Part shown: positions 5,890-45,163 of the stretch, in pieces | Layout of the letters: each line of letters begins with the position of its first letter | Numbering within the stretch: the stretch's first letter is position 1 | Assembly: GCA_019352195.1 (NCBI GenBank) | Contig: JACAFG010000002.1 | Span: 167,820 to 231,819, forward strand | Origin: Candidatus Saccharimonadota bacterium | Lineage (GTDB): Bacteria > Patescibacteriota > Saccharimonadia > UBA4664 | Length of the DNA stretch: 64,000 nucleotides | Direction of reading: 5' to 3' | Position numbers and translations under genes: made by a program | Notes under the pieces: generated by a model | What the model saw: the letters and a program-made list of their open reading frames with translations, nothing else | Database searches by the model: none | Told to the model about the DNA's origin: nothing

Positions 5890-6266
5890 GGGGCTGATCA
5901 GCTTCGACGTTGGGATCTTTACCAGGTTAAAGCGCAGGTCGACTGGCCGCCGTAAGCGGGCAACAAGTTGTTAAATGACAACTTAATTTCGCGGGTCAAG
6001 GCTGCCTTCACGGCTCCTTCATTCGCTCCTGTTTACGCCTAATAACGTAGACTATCGGCACCTGACTCCTGATGGGGATCCGCCGGTATCAAATCATCAG
6101 GACGCTCTAGACGGCTTGTCTCAGCCGACTAGCTAAGATTTGAGACTGCTTCACTCGTCAGTTTGTCTGGCATGATGATGGGTGACTAAGATCAAAACCA
6201 GACTATATCTGTAGTGCTTGACCAGTAACCTAACGGACCCGAGTGCAATTCTCGGCAGCTCCACCA
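5890..6266 (+). ncRNA. ssrA: tmRNA (SsrA), 377 nt
   Basis: 5' GGGGCUGAUCAGCUUCGACGUUGGG matches the tmRNA 5' consensus (E. coli GGGGCUGAUUCUGGAUUCGACGGG). 3' end GGACCCGAGUGCAAUUCUCGGCAGCUCCACCA is a tRNA-like T-arm plus a 7-bp acceptor stem with G3-U70 (alanine identity) and encoded CCA. An internal open frame ends in tandem UAA-UAA (6040-6045); the tag-like frame reads ...AAFTAPSFAPVYA**. smpB is present at 28.5 kb. Confidence 0.9.
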
Positions 6267-36380: not shown

Positions 36381-36456
36381 CGGGGTGTGGCGCAGTTGGT
36401 AGCGTGCTGTGTTCGGAACGCAGAGGTCGCAGGTTCAAGTCCTGTCACCCCGACCA
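36381..36456 (+). tRNA. tRNA-Pro (anticodon CGG)
   Basis: Hand-folded cloverleaf: acceptor CGGGGTG/CACCCCG, D-arm GCGC-AGTTGGTA-GCGT, anticodon stem CTGTG/CGCAG with loop TTCGGAA (U33, CGG, A37), T-arm GCAGG-TTCAAGT-CCTGT, discriminator A, encoded CCA. Confidence 0.85.
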
Positions 36457-38242: not shown

Positions 38243-39286
38243 CTATAGGCCTTCGGTTAGTAGGTCACGATAGATTCCATGATAGGCTGCCGCGGTGTGC
38301 GCAATATCTAGCTTTAAAGCTAGCTCTCGGTTAGCTGCGCCCAGCGCCAAGTGTAGCCGAGGTGAGTTGGTAAGTTCGGTGAGCGCTTCTTCCACCTGAT
38401 TCGGCGCAATAATTCGCAGTCCGGACGCCATAGCCTCTAGGATTGGCAAACTATTACCGGGCTGCTCAGAAGGCAAGACGGCTAAATCCACTGCCTGGTA
38501 GATGAATGGGTGTCGTTCGTCACTTCGGTCGAGTTCAGGTAAGTTGTGGTACCGCCCGCGCGTTTTCAGTTGTGACAGAGTTGGAGCGAGGCTACTTTCA
38601 CTTGGGTGACCAACGGTGATGAGACAAATATCTTTGGTCGCAGCAAGAGCTGAGAGTTGAAATACGAGCGCGGCAAGCTGCGGGTCGGATGGATGACCAC
38701 TAAAGAGGATCAATGGGATGTCCTCGGGAAGGTCGAGCGCTCTCCGGGCTTCTCGCGTCATGCCGTGTTGATAGCGAGACGTGTCTACTCCGACTGAAAT
38801 AATTTCACCGGACATCATGACGCCGGATGATGTCGCCGCGTCATGCACTATTGGCGTTGTGGCAATAAGGGGAACGAATTTATTAAGTGAACGCAAATAC
38901 TTCCACGAGTGCGGCTTAAACGGTGAAGATGGAGTAAGCGGCAAACTTGGCGCGTAGTGAAGCGTCATAAGCAGCGGGGTACGAACGTAACGGCCCACAT
39001 GGGAGATCTTGATGGCAAGCTGGGTTGATTGCTGAAAATGAACGAGACTTGGCTCGTAACGATTGATGAGCCGCTTGAGATCGCGGCTTGAGGTGAAGTG
39101 ATGCAAGATACAGTTCTCACTCGGTAGCACCGGCAATTCGCCGGGGTTGTGGAGTCGAACCGCCAACACAAATTGATAAGAGGTGACAAGTTCTTTAATA
39201 AGACCGAGGGTAAAGACCTCAACCTCGCCTAGTGGCGCATGCCACTCGGTGACAATGAGAATAGTTGGCAGAGTTTGATTTGACAC
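38243..39286 (-). CDS. GT-B fold glycosyltransferase (GT4-like)
   Basis: C-terminal E...LPILEAMASGLRIIAPN motif. Confidence 0.55.
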   Translation of the reverse strand: MSNQTLPTILIVTEWHAPLGEVEVFTLGLIKELVTSYQFVLAVRLHNPGELPVLPSENCILHHFTSSRDLKRLINRYEPSLVHFQQSTQLAIKISHVGRYVRTPLLMTLHYAPSLPLTPSSPFKPHSWKYLRSLNKFVPLIATTPIVHDAATSSGVMMSGEIISVGVDTSRYQHGMTREARRALDLPEDIPLILFSGHPSDPQLAALVFQLSALAATKDICLITVGHPSESSLAPTLSQLKTRGRYHNLPELDRSDERHPFIYQAVDLAVLPSEQPGNSLPILEAMASGLRIIAPNQVEEALTELTNSPRLHLALGAANRELALKLDIAHTAAAYHGIYRDLLTEGL

Positions 39287-39579
39287 GATCCTCTACTATA
39301 ACCGATATTTGCGACAAATGTCACGAACTTATTTTAGTTATGTCAGTTTAGACTGACGGATGTTCGGTAAGATTTAAGGATGTGTCCACAGCCTGTGTAC
39401 AAACCGCCAGAATATGAGTGATTAATTTTGAATTTTTAGGTGTTCGAATCGTTGAGGGCGCAATGATACTGACAATATTTGGATTTCTAACAGATAAGAG
39501 TGGCTATAATTAGCCTTAAAGCATAAAAACTATTGACCCATAAATCATTTAGGGCTATATTAAATGAGGAGTTCAACAA

Positions 39580-40041
39580 GTGCAGGTAAGGAATACGAGT
39601 TCTCAGTTCGAGAAATCGCTACTCAACAAAATCGCTCGGGTCGCAAACAGGCTCGAAGCTGAGGTGGAAAACGAGTTAAAGGTCAGCTTCGCGCTGACCT
39701 TTTCTCAATTCAGGGTGCTCGACGCCTTGCTCGGCCGCGATGAATTGAGCCAGCGAGAACTAGCCGAAGTCATTGGAGTGACTCCGGCTGTAGTAACGCG
39801 TCAAGCCGAAGTACTGGCGGGACGGGGACTGCTAGAACAGCGGGAAAACCCGCGCAGCCGTCGCGAAAAGCTCATTGTTGCCACGCGCAAAGGGGAACAA
39901 GCGGCCGTTGATGCCGGTAAGGCAATTATGAATGCGCAAAAACGGCTGTTTGAGCCGCTAGATGTACAAGAAGAGTTGGCGATAGAGCGTGGCCTATCAA
40001 AAATGCCGCCGGTGCCAACGAATTGGCACCGGCGCTTCTAG
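39580..40041 (+). CDS. MarR-family winged-helix transcriptional regulator
   Basis: LTFSQFRVLDALLGRDELSQRELAEVIGVTPAVVTRQAEVLAGRGLL (wHTH). Its stop overlaps the RT stop (tail-to-tail). Confidence 0.7.
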   Translation: MQVRNTSSQFEKSLLNKIARVANRLEAEVENELKVSFALTFSQFRVLDALLGRDELSQRELAEVIGVTPAVVTRQAEVLAGRGLLEQRENPRSRREKLIVATRKGEQAAVDAGKAIMNAQKRLFEPLDVQEELAIERGLSKMPPVPTNWHRRF

Positions 40042-40976
40042 GATCGAATGAGCCAGTCATTGCGATGCAACTGGTAGTCATGGAACAACTCCAGGGTGTG
40101 ACACTCGGCTCGGTTACGGCCCTGATGACTTCGTGGCGTGGCCGTCCAGTATACTCCCATGTAGCCAGCAACTTTGGCCGGTTTGATCATGCCGTACCTG
40201 GCTAAGTGCAAAATGCCATTGACCTTACCGAGATACTTACGCGGGACATAGGTACGGCCGGTGAGGTCGAGCCCAATGCCGTTGATCTGGACCGGTCCCT
40301 TCGCGAGGTCGTAAACTTTGGCCTTGCGATAGCTGATGTCAAACCCTGCCGCTGCGATGACGTCTCTGATGGCACGTCGTTTGCGCTCACCAATGGGTTC
40401 GTTACTTGAGAAGGTGAGGTCGTCAATGTAGCGGCTGTATGTCAGCCCCCAGCGCTTGAGTCGGGGGGCTAAGCGTTGATCGATGAGCTCGCCGGCATAG
40501 ATGTTAAACAGATCCGGCGAGGCGGGCGCTCCGGTGAGTAGGCCGCCCGTTGTGCCCAAACAATAGCGCTTGAGAAAATCATGTGTGCTCGACAGCTCGG
40601 ACGGGTCGGCAACAAGATAGCCGTCACGTTGCGCTGCCAGCGTACACAGGATGAACGCCAGTTCGCCACCCTTTACATACAAATACGCGCTGTGAAGGTC
40701 CAGCAGGTACAAGTAGCGCTTGCCGCGATGACGCTCGACATTGCGTCGTGGCGACGAGCCAGGTAAAACCGCGGTGGCGTAGGGTGAGCGGCCATGGACT
40801 TTAGTTTGCAGGAGCCGTAGATCAACGATCATGCGGCTATGAAGCTTGCGCATGGGGTCGTTGGGCGCGTGAATGGTGCGCCACTTGGTAACCCCGCTTA
40901 CCTTATTTTCATCGCGTAATCGATGAACGCGAAAGCTTGGCTCATCTCCAAGGAGGTCTGATAGGTTGTCAAACAA
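40038..40976 (-). CDS. retron-type reverse transcriptase (312 aa)
   Basis: RT motifs 1-2 (KWRTIHAPNDPMRKLHSRMI), A (YLYLLDLHSAY), B' (LLTGAPASPDLFNIY), C (YSRYIDDLTFSS, retron-like RYxDDLTFS), and D with a VTG-like INGIGL. TTG start with GAGGAG RBS. It lacks group II intron maturase/X domains and the DGR (I/V)GxxxSQ motif. Confidence 0.7.
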   Translation of the reverse strand: MFDNLSDLLGDEPSFRVHRLRDENKVSGVTKWRTIHAPNDPMRKLHSRMIVDLRLLQTKVHGRSPYATAVLPGSSPRRNVERHRGKRYLYLLDLHSAYLYVKGGELAFILCTLAAQRDGYLVADPSELSSTHDFLKRYCLGTTGGLLTGAPASPDLFNIYAGELIDQRLAPRLKRWGLTYSRYIDDLTFSSNEPIGERKRRAIRDVIAAAGFDISYRKAKVYDLAKGPVQINGIGLDLTGRTYVPRKYLGKVNGILHLARYGMIKPAKVAGYMGVYWTATPRSHQGRNRAECHTLELFHDYQLHRNDWLIRS

Positions 40977-41006
40977 CGGAGGTGCTCCTCACTGAGAGTC
41001 GGGGGT

Positions 41007-41382
41007 GTGGTCTGGGGCCACAGTTTGGTACTGCCTAACCACGAAGGACAATCCTGTCCGAGAGATAGCCGCGCCAGATGAAGGATCCTGCCGTCGGCCG
41101 CCCGCAAACGTAGAGCGCACGAAATCGAGTCGGGGACAAATGGGACTTGCGCCAGCAACGGCACTCCTCGCATGTGATCCAGACACTGTACCCGTGGCGG
41201 TACGCCGAGATGCAGCACGGATGGACTGTCAGATGGGAGAGAAGTCAACGCTGGATGTGAAAAAAAACGAACGCTAACATCCCTGAAACTCGCCCGAGGG
41301 CCAGCCCCTCCTCATCGCATGAACGACGAGGTTGTATTGCTTTGTCGAACTCCAAACTGCTGCTAGCGCGGCCCCAGACCAC
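41007..41382 (-). ncRNA. candidate retron msr-msd ncRNA bounded by a1/a2 inverted repeats
   Basis: GTGGTCTGGGGCC (minus-strand reading, 41382-41370) and its perfect reverse complement (41019-41007) form a 13-bp stem, extendable to ~17-19 bp with G-U pairs and one mismatch. The element is ~375 nt, has no ORF, and lies between a strong promoter and the RT RBS. It contains several local hairpins (e.g. CCTCGTCG-ttcatg-CGATGAGG) and a U8 tract. Confidence 0.45.
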
Positions 41383-41419
41383 TCCACGAACGACCAGCTG
41401 GACCGTCGTGGATGACATG

Positions 41420-41447
41420 ATAATACCCGCTTGCACCAGATAAGCAA
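41420..41447 (-). promoter_or_regulatory. sigma70-like promoter TTGCTT-N16-TATTAT driving the ncRNA-RT transcript
   Basis: -35 at 41447-41442, -10 at 41425-41420 (minus-strand reading). Predicted TSS ~41413, 30 nt upstream of a1. Confidence 0.5.
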
Positions 41448-41460
41448 ACCATTTTAGGTC

Positions 41461-41489
41461 TTGTTCGGCTTTGATTCGGTTGGTATACT
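41461..41489 (+). promoter_or_regulatory. divergent promoter TTGTTC-N17-TATACT for rmuC; the mRNA is probably leaderless
   Basis: -10 ends 6 nt before the ATG at 41496, with no RBS. It lies back-to-back with the retron-like promoter. Confidence 0.4.
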
Positions 41490-41495
41490 CCTTGC

Positions 41496-42563
41496 ATGAC
41501 GGTCTTACTCATTGCTAGTTTATTTATCGTAATTATTGGCGGTTTTGTTGCCGTGGTCTTAAGTATGAATCGCCAGGTTCGGCGTCTTCAGGATGGGCTC
41601 AAGAGTGATACAGCACTTGGTCTCATCAAGCAGGATCTACAGGGGATTAATAACACCATAAATGATCGCATGGATAAATCTAATGATTCGATGCGCGACG
41701 CTATCCAGCGCCAATTTGCGGCTAGCTCGCGGCTGATCGGCGAGGTAACCCGTGATCTCACTGAACTCAAAGAGAGCAATAAGCAGGTGCTTGGTATTAC
41801 CGACGAACTAAAGTTACTGCAAAATACCCTTCAAAACCCTAAGCAGCGCGGGGTCTTGGGTGAATATTTCTTACAAAGTGTGCTCGAGAATGTTTTACCG
41901 CCCGAACGATTCGAACTGCAATATAAGTTTAGTGACGGCGAAATTGTGGACGCCATTATTCGCCTCGACCGCGGGATGATTTTGCCGGTCGACTCTAAGT
42001 TTAGCCTCGAAAATTACAATCGACTGGTAGAGGAAACTGACATAGCTAAGCAAGACGCGCTGATAAAGGGCTTCAAAAATGATTTGAAGTCTCGCATAGA
42101 TGAGACCTCCAAGTATATACGTCCGAGTGAGGGGACTATGGATTTTGCCTTTATGTTCATCCCGAGCGAGGCCATTTATTATGATTTGCTTATCAATAAG
42201 GTGGGGACGTTGCAGACCAATTCACGCGATTTAATTGAGTATGCCTTTCGTGATAAGCGGGTAATCATTGTAAGTCCTACATCATTTATGGCGTACTTGC
42301 AGACGGTATTGCAGGGACTGCGGAGCCTGCAGATTGAAGAAAAGGCTAAGGAAATTCAGATAAGGGTTGGTGAATTAGGGCGTCATATTAATGCTCACGA
42401 GGTCTTTATGCAGAAGCTTGGGGTCTCACTTGGAACCACGGTGGGCCACTTTAATAATGCGCATAAAGAGCTGAAGAAAATGGATAAAGACGTAGTGAAG
42501 ATTGCTGATGTCACGCCCTCGGTTGAGCCGCTCATTCTTGACCGTCCGAGTAGTGACGAGTAA
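41496..42563 (+). CDS. rmuC: DNA recombination protein RmuC (putative nuclease)
   Basis: N-terminal TM, coiled coil, then the RmuC C-terminal domain (MDFAFMFIPSEAIYYDLL ... VIIVSPTSFMAYLQTV). Confidence 0.7.
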   Translation: MTVLLIASLFIVIIGGFVAVVLSMNRQVRRLQDGLKSDTALGLIKQDLQGINNTINDRMDKSNDSMRDAIQRQFAASSRLIGEVTRDLTELKESNKQVLGITDELKLLQNTLQNPKQRGVLGEYFLQSVLENVLPPERFELQYKFSDGEIVDAIIRLDRGMILPVDSKFSLENYNRLVEETDIAKQDALIKGFKNDLKSRIDETSKYIRPSEGTMDFAFMFIPSEAIYYDLLINKVGTLQTNSRDLIEYAFRDKRVIIVSPTSFMAYLQTVLQGLRSLQIEEKAKEIQIRVGELGRHINAHEVFMQKLGVSLGTTVGHFNNAHKELKKMDKDVVKIADVTPSVEPLILDRPSSDE

Positions 42564-43151
42564 ATGAATATTTCAGAGCCAATTTTTGGCGTAGCCTCGG
42601 CGCTCTTGTTGGCAGCGTCGGGTCCATCATATTTTATTAGCACTATTAAAGGGCAAATGAAGCCGCAGCGTGCCACTTGGTTTATTTGGGCAGTACTTGG
42701 TGTGACAGCGCTGGTGTCTCAGGTGGCTTTGGGTGGCACGTGGTCGGTTGTATTTACGGCAGTTGATAGCCTGGGTAATATCTTAATGTTTCTGCTAGCG
42801 CTGAAATATGGGGTTGGGGGTTGGAACCGACTCGATAAGATTGCCTTGGTGATTGCGGGGGTTGGAATAATTGTTTCAATCGTCGTCAGACAGCAACTTA
42901 TTGCGCTTGTTGGTGTGATTGTAGCTGACGCCGCCTCAGCATCTTTGACGATCCGGAAAGCCTATCTGGATCCAGCCAGTGAGGATCCGCTGGCCTGGCT
43001 GCTGGTGGGACTTAGCGCAGTCTGCGCCCTCATTGCGGTTGGCCGCATTGACGTCCAGCTATTGATTTACCCGATATATCTGGCACTCGCTAATTTTGGG
43101 GTCGTAGTGGCTCAACGTGTTGGGTTTCGCCGCGTTGCCGGTCGAGTATAA
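42564..43151 (+). CDS. hypothetical polytopic membrane protein (6 TM)
   Basis: ATG immediately follows the rmuC stop, so it is translationally coupled. Confidence 0.5.
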   Translation: MNISEPIFGVASALLLAASGPSYFISTIKGQMKPQRATWFIWAVLGVTALVSQVALGGTWSVVFTAVDSLGNILMFLLALKYGVGGWNRLDKIALVIAGVGIIVSIVVRQQLIALVGVIVADAASASLTIRKAYLDPASEDPLAWLLVGLSAVCALIAVGRIDVQLLIYPIYLALANFGVVVAQRVGFRRVAGRV

Positions 43152-43204
43152 ATTTTGCCTCAGTTAAGCATGAACGGTATACTTTGATCAACGAAAGGGA
43201 AGTA

Positions 43205-44197
43205 ATGAAACGAATTGTTTCTGGTATCAAGCCAACTGGTGAACTTACGCTCGGAAATTATCTGGGAGCAATGCGACGTTGGGGCGAAATGAGCGCCAAC
43301 CCCGATCATGAGCATTTTTTCTTTGTGCCCAACCTGCATGCTCTGACGGTGCGCCCGGAGCCGAAGACGCTGCATACCGATAGCCGAGCGGCAGTAGCTT
43401 GGCTGTTGGCGATGGGTGTAGATCATGATCACAGCTACATCTTTATGCAGTCTCAGGTGCCGGCTCATAGCGAACTGACATGGATTTTGAATAACTACAC
43501 CACCATGGGTGAGCTCAACCGAATGACGCAGTTTAAAGACAAGGCTCTCAAGAGCGGCGCCGAGGGTCAGCTAGTTGGCTTGTATGACTACCCAGTACTT
43601 ATGGCCGCTGACATATTGCTCTACGATGCGGATGAGGTACCGGTGGGCGAAGACCAGAAACAGCACGTGGAATTAACGCGTGATATTGCGACCCGCTTCA
43701 ATAACCTGCATGGCGACGTTTTCCGTGTACCTCAGCCGACGGTTCAATCAGAAGGGGCCCGCATTATGAATTTGCAGGATCCGGCCAAAAAAATGAGCAA
43801 AAGTGATACTGATGACAGCGGAAACATTTTGCTGACCGACGACGAAAAGACAATCGTGAAGAAAATAAGCCGCGCTGTTACCGATTCAGGTAGTGTGGTG
43901 TCAACGGGCGCCGATAAACCTGCGCTCACCAATTTGCTGACCATTCATTCCATATTAGCTGGCAAGTCGATTGAAGAGCTGGAAGCTGCCTACGCCGGCA
44001 AAGGTTATGGCGCCTTTAAGGAGGACTTAGCTGATATCGTGGTTGAGACTTTAGCTCCACTCCAAAAACACTATCACCAGCTGATGAGTGAAGGGAACAC
44101 CAAAATCGATCAGGCTTTGGAGCACGGTTGGTGGAGAGCATCGGAGCTGGCTAATGCCAAACTCGCTCAAGTGAAAGAGATTTTGGGCCTGTTTTAG
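43205..44197 (+). CDS. trpS: tryptophan--tRNA ligase
   Basis: Class I motifs (PTGELTLGNYLGA as HIGH-type; KMSKSD). RBS AAGGGAAG. Confidence 0.9.
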   Translation: MKRIVSGIKPTGELTLGNYLGAMRRWGEMSANPDHEHFFFVPNLHALTVRPEPKTLHTDSRAAVAWLLAMGVDHDHSYIFMQSQVPAHSELTWILNNYTTMGELNRMTQFKDKALKSGAEGQLVGLYDYPVLMAADILLYDADEVPVGEDQKQHVELTRDIATRFNNLHGDVFRVPQPTVQSEGARIMNLQDPAKKMSKSDTDDSGNILLTDDEKTIVKKISRAVTDSGSVVSTGADKPALTNLLTIHSILAGKSIEELEAAYAGKGYGAFKEDLADIVVETLAPLQKHYHQLMSEGNTKIDQALEHGWWRASELANAKLAQVKEILGLF

Positions 44198-44216
44198 GTC
44201 GATCACCCAAGATAAA

Positions 44217-44250
44217 AAGAAAACAGCGATTTCGATCGCTGTTTTCTTTT
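44217..44250 (+). terminator. intrinsic terminator of trpS
   Basis: GAAAACAGCGAT-ttcg-ATCGCTGTTTTC followed by a T-run. Confidence 0.85.
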
Positions 44251-44454
44251 TACAACAAACCAAACATTGTAATTTCACTGAATTAGTTTTTTACAGGTTT
44301 ATTTAGCCTCAAATCTGATAAGTATTTTACGGCTATGTATTGTAATATTAACAACATTAGCCACTGAAAAGTATGCTAAAAATTGATAATAATTAGCGAA
44401 TTATGCCTATACAGAGGTATTTGTAGCGTAGCAGTGATTGAAGCTTAAGACTGT

Positions 44455-44482
44455 TGACTTTTGAAAATGGTTGTGCTAAGTT
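44455..44482 (+). promoter_or_regulatory. candidate promoter TTGACT-N16-TAAGTT for the ORF-free transcript
   Basis: -35 at 44455-44460, -10 at 44477-44482. AT-rich upstream; alternative promoters are possible. Confidence 0.3.
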
Positions 44483-44488
44483 TGTTTC

Positions 44489-45092
44489 AGACCGAAGTTC
44501 GCAGACCACATAGCCCGCGATCACCGACCAACCGTTCAGACCAAGTCCGCCGCTCAAAGATCACCGACCACGACCAAAGGTTCCTTAAAATGTTAAAAAC
44601 TCTCGTTCAAACTCATCTAGAGTTACGTCCGGATGGTAGGGGTAGTCCCGGTTAGAAATATCCCCCTTATTTCTAACCCGGGCTCTCCCCACCATCAAAC
44701 CAACTAAGCTCAATCTAGTGTCCAAACCTAGATGACGCACTGGCTTAGGACCAGACCAAGACCCGACCAATGACCAACGTAACATGACAACAAACATCAC
44801 TGTTACAGGTAGCTGGAAGGCATGCGGTAATAACATACGTTGTTGCCGACTGCCTTCCAGCTACACCATGACCCGGGAGGAAAAACTTAGCTCAAACTAG
44901 TACATGAACATAGACTAGAAGTAGCTAGCACCACAACTATTTCTTACTGATATCCAAAACTATTGGTAGGAAGTACTACGGGGCGACAGGCGCCAATTTA
45001 CCAATAAATATGGGTGCTTCTTGTTCGCCCCGTAACTCGAATTTATTCCAAAGCATCAATGATTGTCGTGAGACGAGCATTGATGCTTTTTT
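44489..45092 (+). ncRNA. candidate large structured ncRNA (~600 nt, unknown family)
   Basis: No ORF with protein-like composition in any frame. Features: a 12-nt direct repeat GATCACCGACCA (44519 and 44559) and many GACCA(A) motifs; an extended imperfect hairpin at 44632-44696 with a 13-bp apical stem; a perfect 14-bp-stem hairpin at 44809-44864; a 10/11 stem at 44979-45033; and a strong terminator at the end. Confidence 0.4.
45051..45092 (+). terminator. intrinsic terminator ending the ORF-free transcript
   Basis: AGCATCAATG ... CATTGATGCT (10 bp) with an inner TCGT-gag-ACGA, then TTTTTT. Confidence 0.8.
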
Positions 45093-45163
45093 CGATTGCC
45101 TCTACCTGTGGCGGGAAGGGGTGTAAGGTGCAATAATAGAGCCAATATAAGCGTGAGTGGAAT

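Follow-up and report, generated by a model that had tools for sequence, protein, structure and literature searches.

The locus described here raises the question of whether a retron-type reverse transcriptase (RT) and the end-paired RNA encoded beside it form a complete system, or whether they act together with one of the neighbouring genes. It lies in a 64,000-nucleotide stretch of DNA (the window) from a Candidatus Saccharibacteria bacterium, the CPR-type host that an earlier note on this DNA had surmised. The arrangement reported there, with a divergent rmuC, a coupled 6-TM gene and a MarR gene whose stop codon overlaps that of the RT, is present as claimed. The extent given for the element (40038-43151) is not retained, the element proper covering about 40006-41459. 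The features of the locus are as follows.

39580-40041 (+): MarR-family regulator (Pfam MarR), native flank, outside the module
40006-41459: accessory insertion (promoter, non-coding RNA, RT and terminator) between the core genes MarR and rmuC
40007-40034 (-): terminator-like hairpin of 12 pairs followed by a T-run, directly after the RT stop codon
40038-40976 (-): retron-clade RT, 312 residues, TTG start, with fingers, palm and thumb only and no extra domain
40985-40990 (-): Shine-Dalgarno sequence GAGGAG of the RT
41412-41004 (-): structured non-coding RNA (ncRNA) of ~410 nt, 5' of the RT on the same strand
41420-41447 (-): putative promoter of the ncRNA and RT, with -35 TTGCTT (41447-41442), a 16-nt spacer and -10 TATTAT (41425-41420)
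41496-42563 (+): rmuC (Pfam RmuC, 7e-55), native core-genome flank, outside the module
42564-43151 (+): 6-TM gene, native core-genome flank, outside the module

The reverse transcriptase

The 312-residue reading frame carries the retron-type motif set attributed to it (RYIDDLTFS, GAPASPDLFNIY and INGIGL). Its characteristic residues are NVERH (NAXXH-like, N79 to H83), D93, GAPASP, YIDD (D185 and D186) and ING (VTG-like, G233). Among 33 aligned family members the RT reading frames are intact and the catalytic residues invariant, and the NAXXH-like NVERH and the VTG-like ING/ITG occupy invariant positions. Equivalents of the Shine-Dalgarno sequence are found in the two closest RT relatives, L081 and L082 (GAGAGGAG and GGGAGG).

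The window RT matches Pfam RVT_1 (8e-12) and PADLOC retron RT models (1e-21 and weaker, none dominant); the PADLOC matches are retron RT models in 33 of the 33 family members tested. A family profile searched against the PDB matched retron RTs at 1e-35 to 1e-23 (Ec83 2e-35, Ec86 9e-32), compared with 8e-11 for group II, 6e-8 for Drt2, 4e-4 for AbiK and 5e-4 for the RT of diversity-generating retroelements (DGRs). With an AF2 model of the RT (pLDDT 93.8), the top 12 Foldseek matches are all retron RTs (TM 0.65-0.70). By PADLOC, PDB profile search and Foldseek, the RT thus groups with retron RTs and not with group II, DGR or UG/Abi RTs. A DRT-like affiliation was considered and is unsupported at the protein level (NCBIfam Drt2 19.5 bits, cut-off 390). 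No fused effector domain was detected in the window RT with Pfam or PADLOC. In a sister subclade (L024, L026 and L028; at least 22 clusters) the RT is fused to a DnaG-type CHC2 zinc ribbon.

The insertion and its flanking genes

In three relatives whose RmuC is 86-90% identical to that of the window (L083-L085), MarR is followed by 99-173 nt and then directly by rmuC, with no RT and with otherwise identical synteny. The region of about 40006-41459 in the window is therefore an insertion, of ~1.45 kb, in agreement with the suggestion that comparison with close relatives might reveal one; junction reading leaves its right edge uncertain, somewhere in 41413-41459. Its GC content of 56.8% compares with a mean of 52.4% (sd 3.2) for the window, and the GC3 of the RT is 65%, against 50-56% in the flanking genes. 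The last ~12 codons of MarR read into the insertion, where the frame enters the terminator-like hairpin; a comparable hairpin also lies 3' of the RT in L081. The overlap of the MarR and RT stop codons is a by-product of the insertion, and the short rmuC leader is native. The promoter sequence TTGCTT-N16-TATTAT is present as reported, and its -10 element has the same position in L081, but the description 'near-consensus' was generous, since the -35 element agrees with TTGACA at only three of six positions, which is also why the promoter is missing from the consensus scan list.

These comparisons bear on whether the neighbours, put forward earlier as candidate partners, belong to the system. In a tripartite retron of this kind the divergent RmuC nuclease would be the effector, perhaps with the coupled 6-TM protein, and MarR the regulator. 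Such an arrangement is consistent with the retention of rmuC beside the RT in the window, L081 and L082, with the restriction-endonuclease-like fold of RmuC, with a match of the window RmuC to the PADLOC RT-associated RmuC model (1.4e-14) and with the RmuC-like neighbours of some UG2 RTs (PMC9226505). However, MarR, rmuC and the 6-TM gene adjoin one another in the same order in the RT-less L083-L085, where the rmuC promoter (CTTGTTCGG-N-TATACT), itself native, is conserved. RmuC stands beside the RT in none of the other ~45 family loci, and its Pfam RmuC score (187 bits) is far above that of the RT-associated model (52 bits). RmuC is a core gene of Saccharibacteria, its search giving at least 7,999 matches at E <= 1e-60, against 711 representatives, one per cluster at 50% identity, for the RT family profile at E <= 1e-30. 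A role for RmuC as effector is thus largely refuted already and is considered very improbable.

Relatives and their gene neighbourhoods

Across about 45 related loci the RT has no conserved protein-coding neighbour. The genes around it have no BLASTP cluster or Pfam family in common (maximum 3 of 89), no conserved small open reading frame was found beside the RT in the family loci, and no canonical effector was found in the RT operon of any relative examined, which extends to the family the lack of an effector gene or RT fusion first noticed in the window. No family member was found on viral contigs. By contrast with the proteins, the ncRNA is kept at about 45 homologous loci, on the RT strand and either 5' or 3' of the RT; in many cases it has a promoter and a terminator of its own, and L002 and L091 have duplicated copies. 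Two-part units of RT and ncRNA with no partner toxin gene make up a large family that is nearly confined to CPR bacteria.

The non-coding RNA

The RNA comprises the following elements, listed from its 5' end.

41383-41412 (-): 5'-terminal hairpin directly before a1, formed by an inverted repeat and present in the MFE and centroid folds
41367-41385 (-): a1, 5' arm of the end-pairing helix (perfect core 41382-41370)
41310-41331 (-): core hairpin Pa, 9 bp, loop UCAU, putatively the RT-binding, msr-like hairpin
41285-41308 (-): core hairpin Pb, consisting of GGGN, an inner stem with a tetraloop, and NCCC
41253-41272 (-): polypyrimidine tract GUUCGUUUUUUUUCACAUCC, 3' part of the core motif
41023-41252 (-): hypervariable region from the polypyrimidine tract to a2, putative msd-like template
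41004-41022 (-): a2, 3' arm of the end-pairing helix (perfect core 41019-41007)

The segment is not strictly ORF-free, as had been stated, because five mechanically called reading frames of 57-116 residues overlap it; none of them is conserved in homologous loci, whereas the RNA pairing is. The reported inverted repeat is confirmed, with GTGGTCTGGGGCC (41382-41370) pairing perfectly with GGCCCCAGACCAC (41019-41007) over 13 bp; the pairing extends to 16 nt at 94%, or to 19 nt if one A.A mismatch and two G.U pairs are allowed, close to the ~17-19 bp proposed. A perfect 13-mer inverted repeat within 600 nt has an estimated chance expectation of ~0.003 (~1.8e5 arm pairs x 4^-13). When the whole RNA is folded, the MFE and centroid structures both pair the arms; the z-score is -3.69, and none of 100 shuffles folds as well. 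The score of the enclosing helix is 43.5 in the window, against 38.6 for the 99th percentile of controls, and its family median is 33, against 25 in controls. In about 30 loci the helix keeps its position while its sequence differs through compensatory changes, as in the window, L081 and L082 (GGGGCC/GGCCCC, GGGGUC/GACCCC and GGGGUA/UACCCC); compensatory changes also retain the 5'-terminal hairpin in L081 and L082. Directly 3' of a1, CUAGCAGC holds candidate priming G residues; no AGC-type priming motif is conserved at this position across the family. From a1 to a2 the window RNA measures 382 nt, compared with 217-330 nt for most relatives, and it is indeed longer than a typical msr-msd. A match to a known retron RNA model was sought in Rfam and none was obtained for the window ncRNA.

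A covariance model of the core matches 26 family loci, and the window core scores 65.2 bits with model R1 (E 2e-14), the R1/R2 match spanning 41253-41334. Pa shows compensatory changes at nine of nine pairs, with 91.7% of cells paired over 23 loci, while in Pb the helices reach 85-95% pairing and each of the nine pairs shows double changes. Taken jointly, 91.3% of the Pa and Pb cells are paired, against ~50% in slid controls, with double changes at 18 of 18 pairs. The CU-rich tract is aligned in all core matches. Beyond it the RNA is hypervariable: the distance from core to a2 is 230, 385 and 199 nt in the three closest relatives, and the sequence is also very different. Folded as DNA, this region is not more structured than shuffles (z = +1.77), and no long stable hairpin, the usual hallmark of an msd, is found in 41023-41252, as had been remarked. 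In most members outside the sublineage of the window, a further helix (Px) flanks a2 and crosses a1/a2, and could represent a different priming geometry.

Possible function

The reading preferred here, which is regarded as reasonably probable, is that of a stand-alone retron-type RT-ncRNA cassette, carried as the ~1.45-kb insertion, that probably makes RT-DNA and acts without a cis effector, most likely against phage. Of the minimal or trans-acting 'retron/DRT-like' module envisaged earlier, the retron-type character and the missing cis effector stand, and the DRT-like part does not at the protein level. By analogy with characterized retrons, the RT would bind Pa and Pb, the a1/a2 duplex would position a G close to the 3' end of a1 for priming, and part of the hypervariable region would be copied from just 5' of a2 toward the polypyrimidine tract, the single-stranded DNA presumably remaining attached to the RNA. 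The RT-RNA-DNA complex may then serve in conflict, and a defence role is the most likely one on indirect signs, namely the patchy distribution, the rapid evolution and the analogy with retrons. In the absence of a cis effector, either the complex of cDNA and RT would act directly or a host factor whose gene lies elsewhere would mediate the effect. Counting against this reading are the missing long msd hairpin, the lack of a conserved AGC-type priming motif after a1, the Px helix of most members outside the sublineage of the window, which canonical retron RNAs do not have, the missing Rfam match, the mostly housekeeping neighbours and the fact that no family member was found on viral contigs.

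An unlikely alternative is that the cassette has no part in defence, being either a domesticated producer of regulatory RNA or DNA or a selfish element that persists and spreads while giving the host no advantage. The family neighbours are mostly housekeeping genes and not defence islands, synteny is stable within the sublineage of the window, L081 and L082 and thus implies vertical descent for some time, and domestication has been raised for stand-alone clades (Mestre et al., 2020; PMC7736814); compact promoter-to-terminator units with no integrase occupy many different sites among the family loci. Against this, presence is patchy even among close relatives (the cassette is absent from the same site in L083-L085), and divergence is much faster in the RT and the variable part of the RNA than in the flanks, as expected under conflict: the RT shares 61% identity with its L081 counterpart, whereas the values for RmuC and MarR are 91 and 85%. 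Each locus has one copy and the 64-kb window a single core match, hence no sign of proliferation, and no target-site duplication was seen at the insertion junctions.

Slightly less probable is a system like DRT2 or DRT9, in which the cDNA would itself be the effector and not branched msDNA, arising through template jumping or through reiterative copying of a short template, for example as a concatemeric gene or as homopurine DNA from the polypyrimidine tract. The two-component architecture, the conservation of that tract in every core match and the joining of both sides of a2 by Px in most members would suit such a mechanism, and in some loci (L008, L014, L015 and L019) the variable region has almost no stop codons when read on its cDNA-sense strand. 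However, stop-free frames are inconsistent across loci and overall not beyond shuffles, the a1/a2 end-pairing is a retron priming geometry, and the retron-clade assignment of the RT, with its far weaker PDB matches to Drt2 and DRT9, points away from UG/Abi enzymes. The least probable explanation is a decaying retron that has lost its effector and its function. The effector is indeed absent, and loss of the associated protein has been proposed for the Ec107 branch (PMC7736814), but the RT reading frames are intact, with invariant catalytic residues, across the aligned members and hundreds of clusters, compensatory change maintains the RNA, and the whole family lacks an effector, so that among the loci seen there is no effector-bearing sister from which to decay.

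Comparison with known systems

The canonical tripartite retrons (Retron-Eco1/Ec86, Ec83, Ec78 and Eco2/Ec67) share with the window the RT fold and motifs, the order of promoter, ncRNA with a1/a2 and RT on one strand, and msr-like hairpins beside a1. They differ in possessing an effector gene or fused effector domain and a typically shorter msr-msd; the msd-like part of the window RNA is not a long hairpin and has no Rfam msr counterpart, and the Px helix of most members outside its sublineage is a further departure. As in Retron type I-C (the RT-Toprim fusion of Ec67/Eco2), the RT of the sister subclade is fused to a module also found in DnaG primase; this module is the CHC2 zinc ribbon and not the catalytic Toprim, and the window RT has no fusion.

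DRT2 (UG2) and DRT9 are defence systems of an RT and an ncRNA without a separate effector, and they resemble the window in that a structured ncRNA beside the RT is the only partner. The window RT is of another class, its RNA has the a1/a2 end-pairing typical of retrons, and no consistent stop-free concatemer frame was found in its family. DGRs, the commonest RTs in CPR (PMC8632793), likewise have a non-coding template beside an RT in CPR genomes, but the window has neither a template/variable repeat pair nor an Avd-like gene.

The statement that described retron types carry an effector was incomplete, since stand-alone (msr-msd)-RT cassettes have been reported for the Retron-Eco5 (Ec107) branch of RT clade 2 and for RT clade 11 of Actinobacteria (Mestre et al., 2020; PMC7736814); the present family is therefore not a new category. 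Like them, it consists of a retron-clade RT beside an end-paired ncRNA, and no protein is specifically associated with it. Its RT belongs to a different lineage (PADLOC RT_Ec107-like 3e-15, no better than other types). Unlike the cassettes of clades 2 and 11, its hosts are almost all CPR/Patescibacteria, and its RNA has a different core, lacks a long msd hairpin, carries in most members an extra helix flanking a2, varies in position relative to the RT and occasionally occurs as tandem copies. The novelty of the family with respect to known stand-alone cassettes is its host range, its RNA architecture and its zinc-ribbon-fused subclade.

Organization of the cassette

The region of interest comprises the gene for a retron-type RT and a structured ncRNA (41412-41004) encoded upstream of it on the same strand. 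The paired ends of the RNA are designated a1 and a2 and its core hairpins Pa and Pb, and the variable region is the putative msd-like template.

Features of the RT-ncRNA cassette, in 5' to 3' order (window positions)
41447-41442 and 41425-41420, (-): promoter-like site predicted from sequence, -35 TTGCTT and -10 TATTAT separated by a 16-nt spacer
41412-41383, (-): 5' hairpin
41385-41367, (-): a1 arm, pairs with a2
41331-41310, (-): hairpin Pa, 9 bp
41308-41285, (-): hairpin Pb
41272-41253, (-): polypyrimidine tract
41252-41023, (-): variable stretch of 230 nt without long hairpins
41022-41004, (-): a2 arm
40990-40985, (-): ribosome-binding site GAGGAG
40976-40038, (-): RT ORF, 312 aa, TTG start at 40976
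40034-40007, (-): 12-pair hairpin and T-run, terminator-like

The central interpretation of the earlier note, a retron-type RT with an a1/a2 ncRNA and no effector, is supported by the present analysis, with some corrections of detail. A promoter-like site of the form TTGCTT-N16-TATTAT does lie upstream of the RNA, but near-consensus is a generous description of it; its -35 hexamer shares just three of six positions with the consensus, which is why the site is missing from a consensus scan. The description of the segment as ORF-free is not literally correct, since ORFs do overlap the RNA region.

The RT and its family

All 33 family members scanned with PADLOC hit its retron RT models. The best matches of the window RT are RT_VI (1e-21), followed by RT_outgroup, RT_other, III-A and II-A, and Pfam identifies RVT_1 alone. 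Because all of the type models match at similar strength across the 33 members, no single retron type can be assigned and the family belongs to none of the described types. A search of the PDB with the family profile places retron RTs (Ec83, 2e-35; Ec86, 9e-32; Ec67, 1e-23) far above a group II intron RT (8e-11), Drt2 (6e-8) and AbiK and a DGR RT (approximately 4e-4). The AlphaFold model of the RT (pLDDT 93.8) consists of fingers, palm and thumb domains with nothing further, and retron RTs account for all of its 12 best Foldseek matches in the PDB.

The catalytic YIDD is intact. An NVERH sequence (N79-V-E-R-H83; H83 invariant, N79 at least 90% conserved) is located ten residues before the motif-A aspartate, which we take to be the same spacing as that of the equivalent motif in Ec86. 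A second short motif, I231-N-G233, is ING in the window and ITG in many members, with G233 invariant. Both are variants, at conserved columns, of motifs that mark retron RTs (Mestre et al., 2020; PMC7736814). Judged by profiles, predicted fold and motifs, the RT is a member of the retron/retron-like clade, so that the classification proposed in the earlier note is borne out by both profile and structure comparison.

A word-indexed search identified approximately 95 RT relatives, each of about 300 aa, and an exhaustive profile search at E <= 1e-30 identified at least 711 family representatives (one per cluster at 50% identity). The loci compared here (L-numbers) comprise 28 from species genomes, 18 from metagenomes and the two closest relatives of the window RT (L081 and L082); two duplicate metagenome loci were removed (L095, identical to L011, and L099, identical to L020). 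The window host is a Candidatus Saccharibacteria bacterium, and the named hosts of the family are almost all members of the CPR (Patescibacteria): Saccharibacteria, Parcubacteria/Paceibacterota and Kerfeld-, Zambryski-, Campbell-, Harrison-, Andersen- and Kaiserbacteria. The suggestion of a CPR-type genome was therefore correct, and the family as a whole is found largely in the CPR. A single named host lies outside this group, a 477-kb contig labelled 'uncultured Gammaproteobacteria' (L003, CAYNGY010000001.1), which may reflect a binning or labelling issue or a true occurrence outside the CPR. No family members were found on IMG/VR viral contigs, which yielded only distant RTs (22-35% identity).

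In a sister subclade (L024, L026 and L028) the RT, 31-38% identical to that of the window, has at its C-terminus a CHC2 zinc ribbon of the DnaG type (Pfam PF01807, E 2e-24 to 5e-28) in genes at L024:5926-7140, L026:5920-7164 and L028:5920-7191. This architecture occurs in at least 22 protein clusters, one of which is annotated as 'primase' by NCBI, and the three fused loci keep an upstream RNA with a1/a2, a terminator and the additional helix Px described below. Mestre et al. (2020; PMC7736814) do not list a fusion of an RT to a zinc ribbon among their retron types with fused domains.

Structure and conservation of the ncRNA

The arms a1 and a2 form the perfect 13-bp core reported in the earlier note and pair over 19 nt when one mismatch and two G.U pairs are admitted. 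The RNA folds at -175 kcal/mol (z = -3.69; 0 of 100 shuffles as good), and a1/a2, Pa and Pb are present in the MFE and centroid folds alike, in agreement with the proposed pairing of its ends. The inverted repeat is conserved and compensatory in about 30 homologous loci, which share its geometry and differ in sequence. In most loci the end-pairing helix has 10-16 bp, encloses roughly 135-400 nt beside the RT and differs in sequence from locus to locus. Helices that enclose the core motif have a median score of 33, compared with 25 at control positions in the same loci, and half of the native helices score above the 95th percentile of the controls. The inner-end pairs GGGGCC/GGCCCC (window), GGGGUC/GACCCC (L081) and GGGGUA/UACCCC (L082) are compensatory, as are changes between L019 and L022 and between L001 and L005.

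Eight loci were used to build a covariance model of Pa, Pb and the pyrimidine tract. The model scores the window at 65 bits and, after one iteration, found 26 family loci; a sequence-only HMM of the core recovered just its seeds, so that the covariance model was required, and a plain MAFFT alignment of the full-length RNAs was too poor for use. The 23-sequence core alignment, itself a product of model fitting, has 91.3% of its cells paired, compared with 47-51% when the partners are slid. In this same model-fitted alignment both sides have changed at 18 of 18 core pairs, and no shuffle reached the covariation score. Pa and Pb are thus msr-like hairpins adjoining a1 that are backed by covariation. 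The core model has no match in the divergent RT subclades (L010, L011, L013, L015, L017 and L019-L028), in which a1/a2 and Px are visible by inspection. Taken together, the comparisons show that the RNA is conserved and tied to the RT in evolution.

The earlier note had seen no single obvious long msd hairpin, and the folds of the window RNA confirm this: a long stable msd stem-loop is absent, and the MFE structure of the variable part consists of several short hairpins. Folded as DNA, the variable region shows no excess of structure over shuffles (z = +1.77), and the relatives likewise have short hairpins only. Most loci have a G 0-3 nt from the 3' end of a1, and in the window this arm is followed by UAGC; no priming motif after a1 is conserved across the family. 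Rfam searches of 39000-44000, at the gathering threshold and at E <= 10, gave no relevant match, retron msr included. Besides a1/a2, no repeats of the RNA region longer than 12 nt occur in the 64-kb window, and the RNA has no match to phage records. A 22-nt direct repeat (73% identical) is present at 41039-41060 and 41384-41405; in the RNA both copies take the form of a small hairpin with UUCGUGG after it, and one of them immediately precedes a1 while the second lies approximately 20 nt ahead of a2.

Placement and duplication of the RNA gene

The ncRNA is located downstream of the RT in at least nine loci (L001, L005, L006, L086 and L089-L093), for example at L001:2157-2394, L005:1639-1880 and L006:1113-1399, with a terminator and a promoter between RNA and RT. 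Many loci have a terminator hairpin after a2 and a new promoter before the RT. Since the RNA can lie on either side of the RT with its own terminator and promoter, it is a gene in its own right that travels with the RT in either order. Two loci have two tandem RNA genes per RT (L002:5360-5940 and L091:4960-5620). Each copy has its own a1/a2, core and Px and a differing variable segment, and in L091 also its own promoter and terminator.

In most loci outside the window sublineage, a CCUCAGCG-like motif lies 5-45 nt before a2, and its complement CGCUGA comes directly after this arm (for example L024:5780-5830, L026:5775-5825 and L011:5790-5855). The resulting helix Px differs in sequence between loci with its pairing preserved: CAACG/CGUUG in L091, UUCGGC/GCCGAA in L094, CCCAGAA/UUCUGGG in L092, CCUACAACGG/CCGUUGUAGG in L024, CCUCAGU/ACUGAGG in L026 and GAUCAGC/GCUGAUC in L011. 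Pairing is better between 5' and 3' segments of the same locus than between those of different loci, and the observed mean was reached by 0 of 5000 permutations. As Px crosses a1/a2, the two helices would form a pseudoknot or alternating folds. Px is absent from the window, L081 and L082, in which the RT ribosome-binding site directly follows a2.

Insertion site and neighbouring genes

In the window the cassette lies between a convergent MarR gene and a divergent rmuC, which is accompanied by a 6-TM gene. The two closest RT relatives share this site: L081 (RT 61% identical) has a divergent rmuC and a convergent MarR gene, and L082 (59%) has a divergent rmuC on a short contig that ends before any MarR gene. 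Between the window and L081, RmuC is 91% and MarR 85% identical, compared with 61% for the RT. RmuC is a core gene (at least 7,999 matches at E <= 1e-60), and its closest relatives on long contigs are found in L083 (90% identical; 1.09 Mb), L084 and L085 (86% each). The gene order in L083 and L084 is photolyase, glycosyltransferase, MarR, rmuC, 6-TM, trpS, pheS and pheT; the order in L085 is the same but for the glycosyltransferase, which is not called in the photolyase-MarR interval. All three lack the RT, and their MarR and rmuC genes are co-directional and separated by 99-173 nt. These RT-less sites therefore identify the RT-RNA unit as an accessory insertion of approximately 1.45 kb (~40006-41459).

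The insert has a GC content of 56.8%, compared with 52.4% (sd 3.2) for the window, and the GC3 of the RT is 65%, compared with 50-56% in the flanking genes. The MarR and RT stops overlap because the MarR frame runs on, in its last codons, into the terminator of the insert. Both the promoter of rmuC (CTTGTTCGG, spacer, TATACT) and the short leader of this gene are native. No convincing target-site duplication was found at the junctions, and no recombinase or integrase was seen with the insertion. The RT-less MarR-rmuC spacer of L084 (5930-5975) contains a stretch, GATAAT...ATCAGATATGCAA, resembling the end of the cassette that carries its promoter in L081 and in the window. From its sequence this stretch could be the scar of a cassette loss or native sequence used by the cassette promoter; the right edge of the insert is consequently approximate, and the cassette may have been either gained or lost at this site.

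Several other features of the window were observed. A tRNA-Pro (CGG) gene at 36381-36456(+) is approximately 3.5 kb from the insertion and not adjacent to it, with no integrase nearby. Rfam assigns a tmRNA to 5890-6266(+) (89.8 bits, E 1e-33), which ARAGORN did not call on the same window. A stretch of approximately 966 nt without a long ORF (44198-45163) separates trpS from the gene that precedes pheS. Part of it (44631-45038) is 69-88% identical in L083-L085 and includes a palindromic portion (44632-44696), and in L085 the equivalent position holds an 11-nt tandem repeat. The stretch matches no Rfam family, with only terminator-like noise at 44207-44340.

No effector was identified in or beside the window RT by Pfam, PADLOC or NCBIfam. 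Across 28 loci, the genes up to two positions away from the RT share no BLASTP cluster, the most frequent Pfam family among RT neighbours reaches 3 of 89, and no neighbour is conserved over 28 plus 17 loci. The only conserved small ORFs (at least 40 aa, within 1.5 kb of the RT, 47 loci) are antisense shadows of the RT gene, and most neighbours are housekeeping genes (aminoacyl-tRNA synthetases, enolase, TGT, RuvC and RRF). The lack of a canonical cis effector noted for the window thus extends to its relatives. The proposal that rmuC, the 6-TM gene and MarR are partners of the RT does not hold, as all three are adjacent to one another without an RT in L083-L085 and rmuC adjoins the RT in one sublineage only, no other family locus having RmuC beside the RT. 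These empty-site relatives and the absence of the three genes elsewhere in the family essentially exclude them as partners.

Possible function and alternative interpretations

By analogy with characterised retrons (PMC7736814), the RT would recognise Pa/Pb and the a1/a2 duplex would present a G near the 3' end of a1 (CUAGCAGC follows a1 in the window). DNA synthesis might then start from the base 5' of a2 and proceed towards the pyrimidine tract, giving a single-stranded DNA of up to approximately 230 nt joined to RNA. The cassette has no toxin gene, and its activity would therefore lie with the RT-RNA-DNA complex itself or with a host factor encoded outside the cassette. On balance it seems fairly probable that the locus is a stand-alone retron-type cassette that probably produces retron-like cDNA and has no cis effector. 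That it is an inserted retron-type RT-ncRNA cassette without a cis effector is held with high confidence; that it would make retron-like cDNA, as the analogy suggests, is held with moderate confidence and a role in defence with lower confidence. A simple transfer of the retron mechanism is opposed by the lack of a long template hairpin and of a family-wide priming motif and by Px in most members. Presence or absence among close relatives, faster evolution of the RT and variable RNA than of the flanks, RNA gene duplication and many different insertion sites fit a conflict system without proving one.

A DRT2/DRT9-like system, in which a concatemeric or homopolymeric cDNA is the effector, would account for the two-part architecture, the pyrimidine tract and Px, but the RT is of another class: the NCBIfam Drt2 model gives 19.5 bits against a cut-off of 390. 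Stop-free frames of the Neo/DRT2 kind, on either RNA strand, are inconsistent across loci and do not exceed shuffles. At the level of the RT protein the DRT-like affiliation raised in the earlier note finds no support; we consider such a system quite unlikely. A non-defence or selfish role, which would be in keeping with the housekeeping neighbours and the stability of the module within the window sublineage, is rather unlikely given the signs of conflict noted above. Decay to a remnant is likewise unlikely, since the catalytic residues are invariant, the family has hundreds of intact members and the RNA shows covariation. A DGR is rejected, the 64-kb window having no template/variable repeat pair and the RT matching a DGR RT weakly, as is a group II intron, with no Rfam intron match, a 312-aa RT lacking an X/maturase extension and group II RTs ranking below all retron RTs.

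It is also conceivable, if somewhat unlikely, that the CPR family is a new two-component system in which the single-stranded DNA or an RT-DNA-RNA particle is itself active without a toxin. A retron-derived RT would then copy hypervariable 'cargo', sometimes from several RNA genes, out of an a1/a2-Px pseudoknot RNA; the DNA might serve, for example, as a sequence- or structure-specific decoy, guide or primer, and the zinc ribbon of the sister subclade as a DNA-handling module.

Comparison with known systems

Retrons are generally three-part toxin/antitoxin-like defence systems. The earlier note had assumed that all described retrons carry an effector; stand-alone (msr-msd)-RT cassettes have in fact been reported in a clade 2 branch (Ec107) and in clade 11 (Actinobacteria), and whether they use trans effectors or serve another function was left open (Mestre et al., 2020; PMC7736814). 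The effector-less retron is thus not a new idea, and the role of such cassettes has been an open question since 2020, on which a family of at least 711 representatives bears. Literature searches on effector-less retrons returned no description of this RT family, and full-text searches returned none of retrons in Patescibacteria, CPR or Saccharibacteria, although an earlier description is possible. New here are the lineage and its size, its distribution largely within the CPR, the architecture of the RNA, an RNA gene that is freely placed and sometimes duplicated, and the CHC2-ribbon sister subclade. The setting is unexpected, as DGRs are reported to make up about 80% of the RTs of these small-genome bacteria (PMC8632793).

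The family offers a covariation-supported RNA model, a clean pair of occupied and empty sites and natural variants suggestive of mechanism (RNA on either side of the RT, RNA genes in tandem and zinc-ribbon fusion), and the question is therefore directly testable with a 1.45-kb construct. More speculatively, RTs of approximately 300 aa with self-contained RNA genes and long weakly structured templates are possible compact RT-DNA producers for genome editing.

Unlike the tripartite retron types I-XIII, the window cassette has no type-specific effector gene or fused domain. RT_VI is the best PADLOC model for the RT, only marginally (1e-21), and type VI retrons encode a Cro/C1-type HTH protein of 91-110 aa, whereas the only HTH protein at the window locus is the 153-aa convergent MarR. 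The cassette differs from DRT2 (UG2) in that its RT is not of the UG2 class and its ncRNA has no consistent stop-free concatemer, and from the PADLOC DRT with an RT-associated RmuC in that rmuC occupies the same place without an RT in L083-L085. Since the long msd hairpin and a cis effector are absent and msDNA is proposed by analogy, the cassette is called retron-like and placed outside the numbered types. Its RNA differs from that of retrons in lacking the long msd stem-loop; in the clade, fold and motifs of its RT and in a same-strand, end-paired a1/a2 ncRNA with msr-like hairpins it resembles them, and it may well work like a retron.
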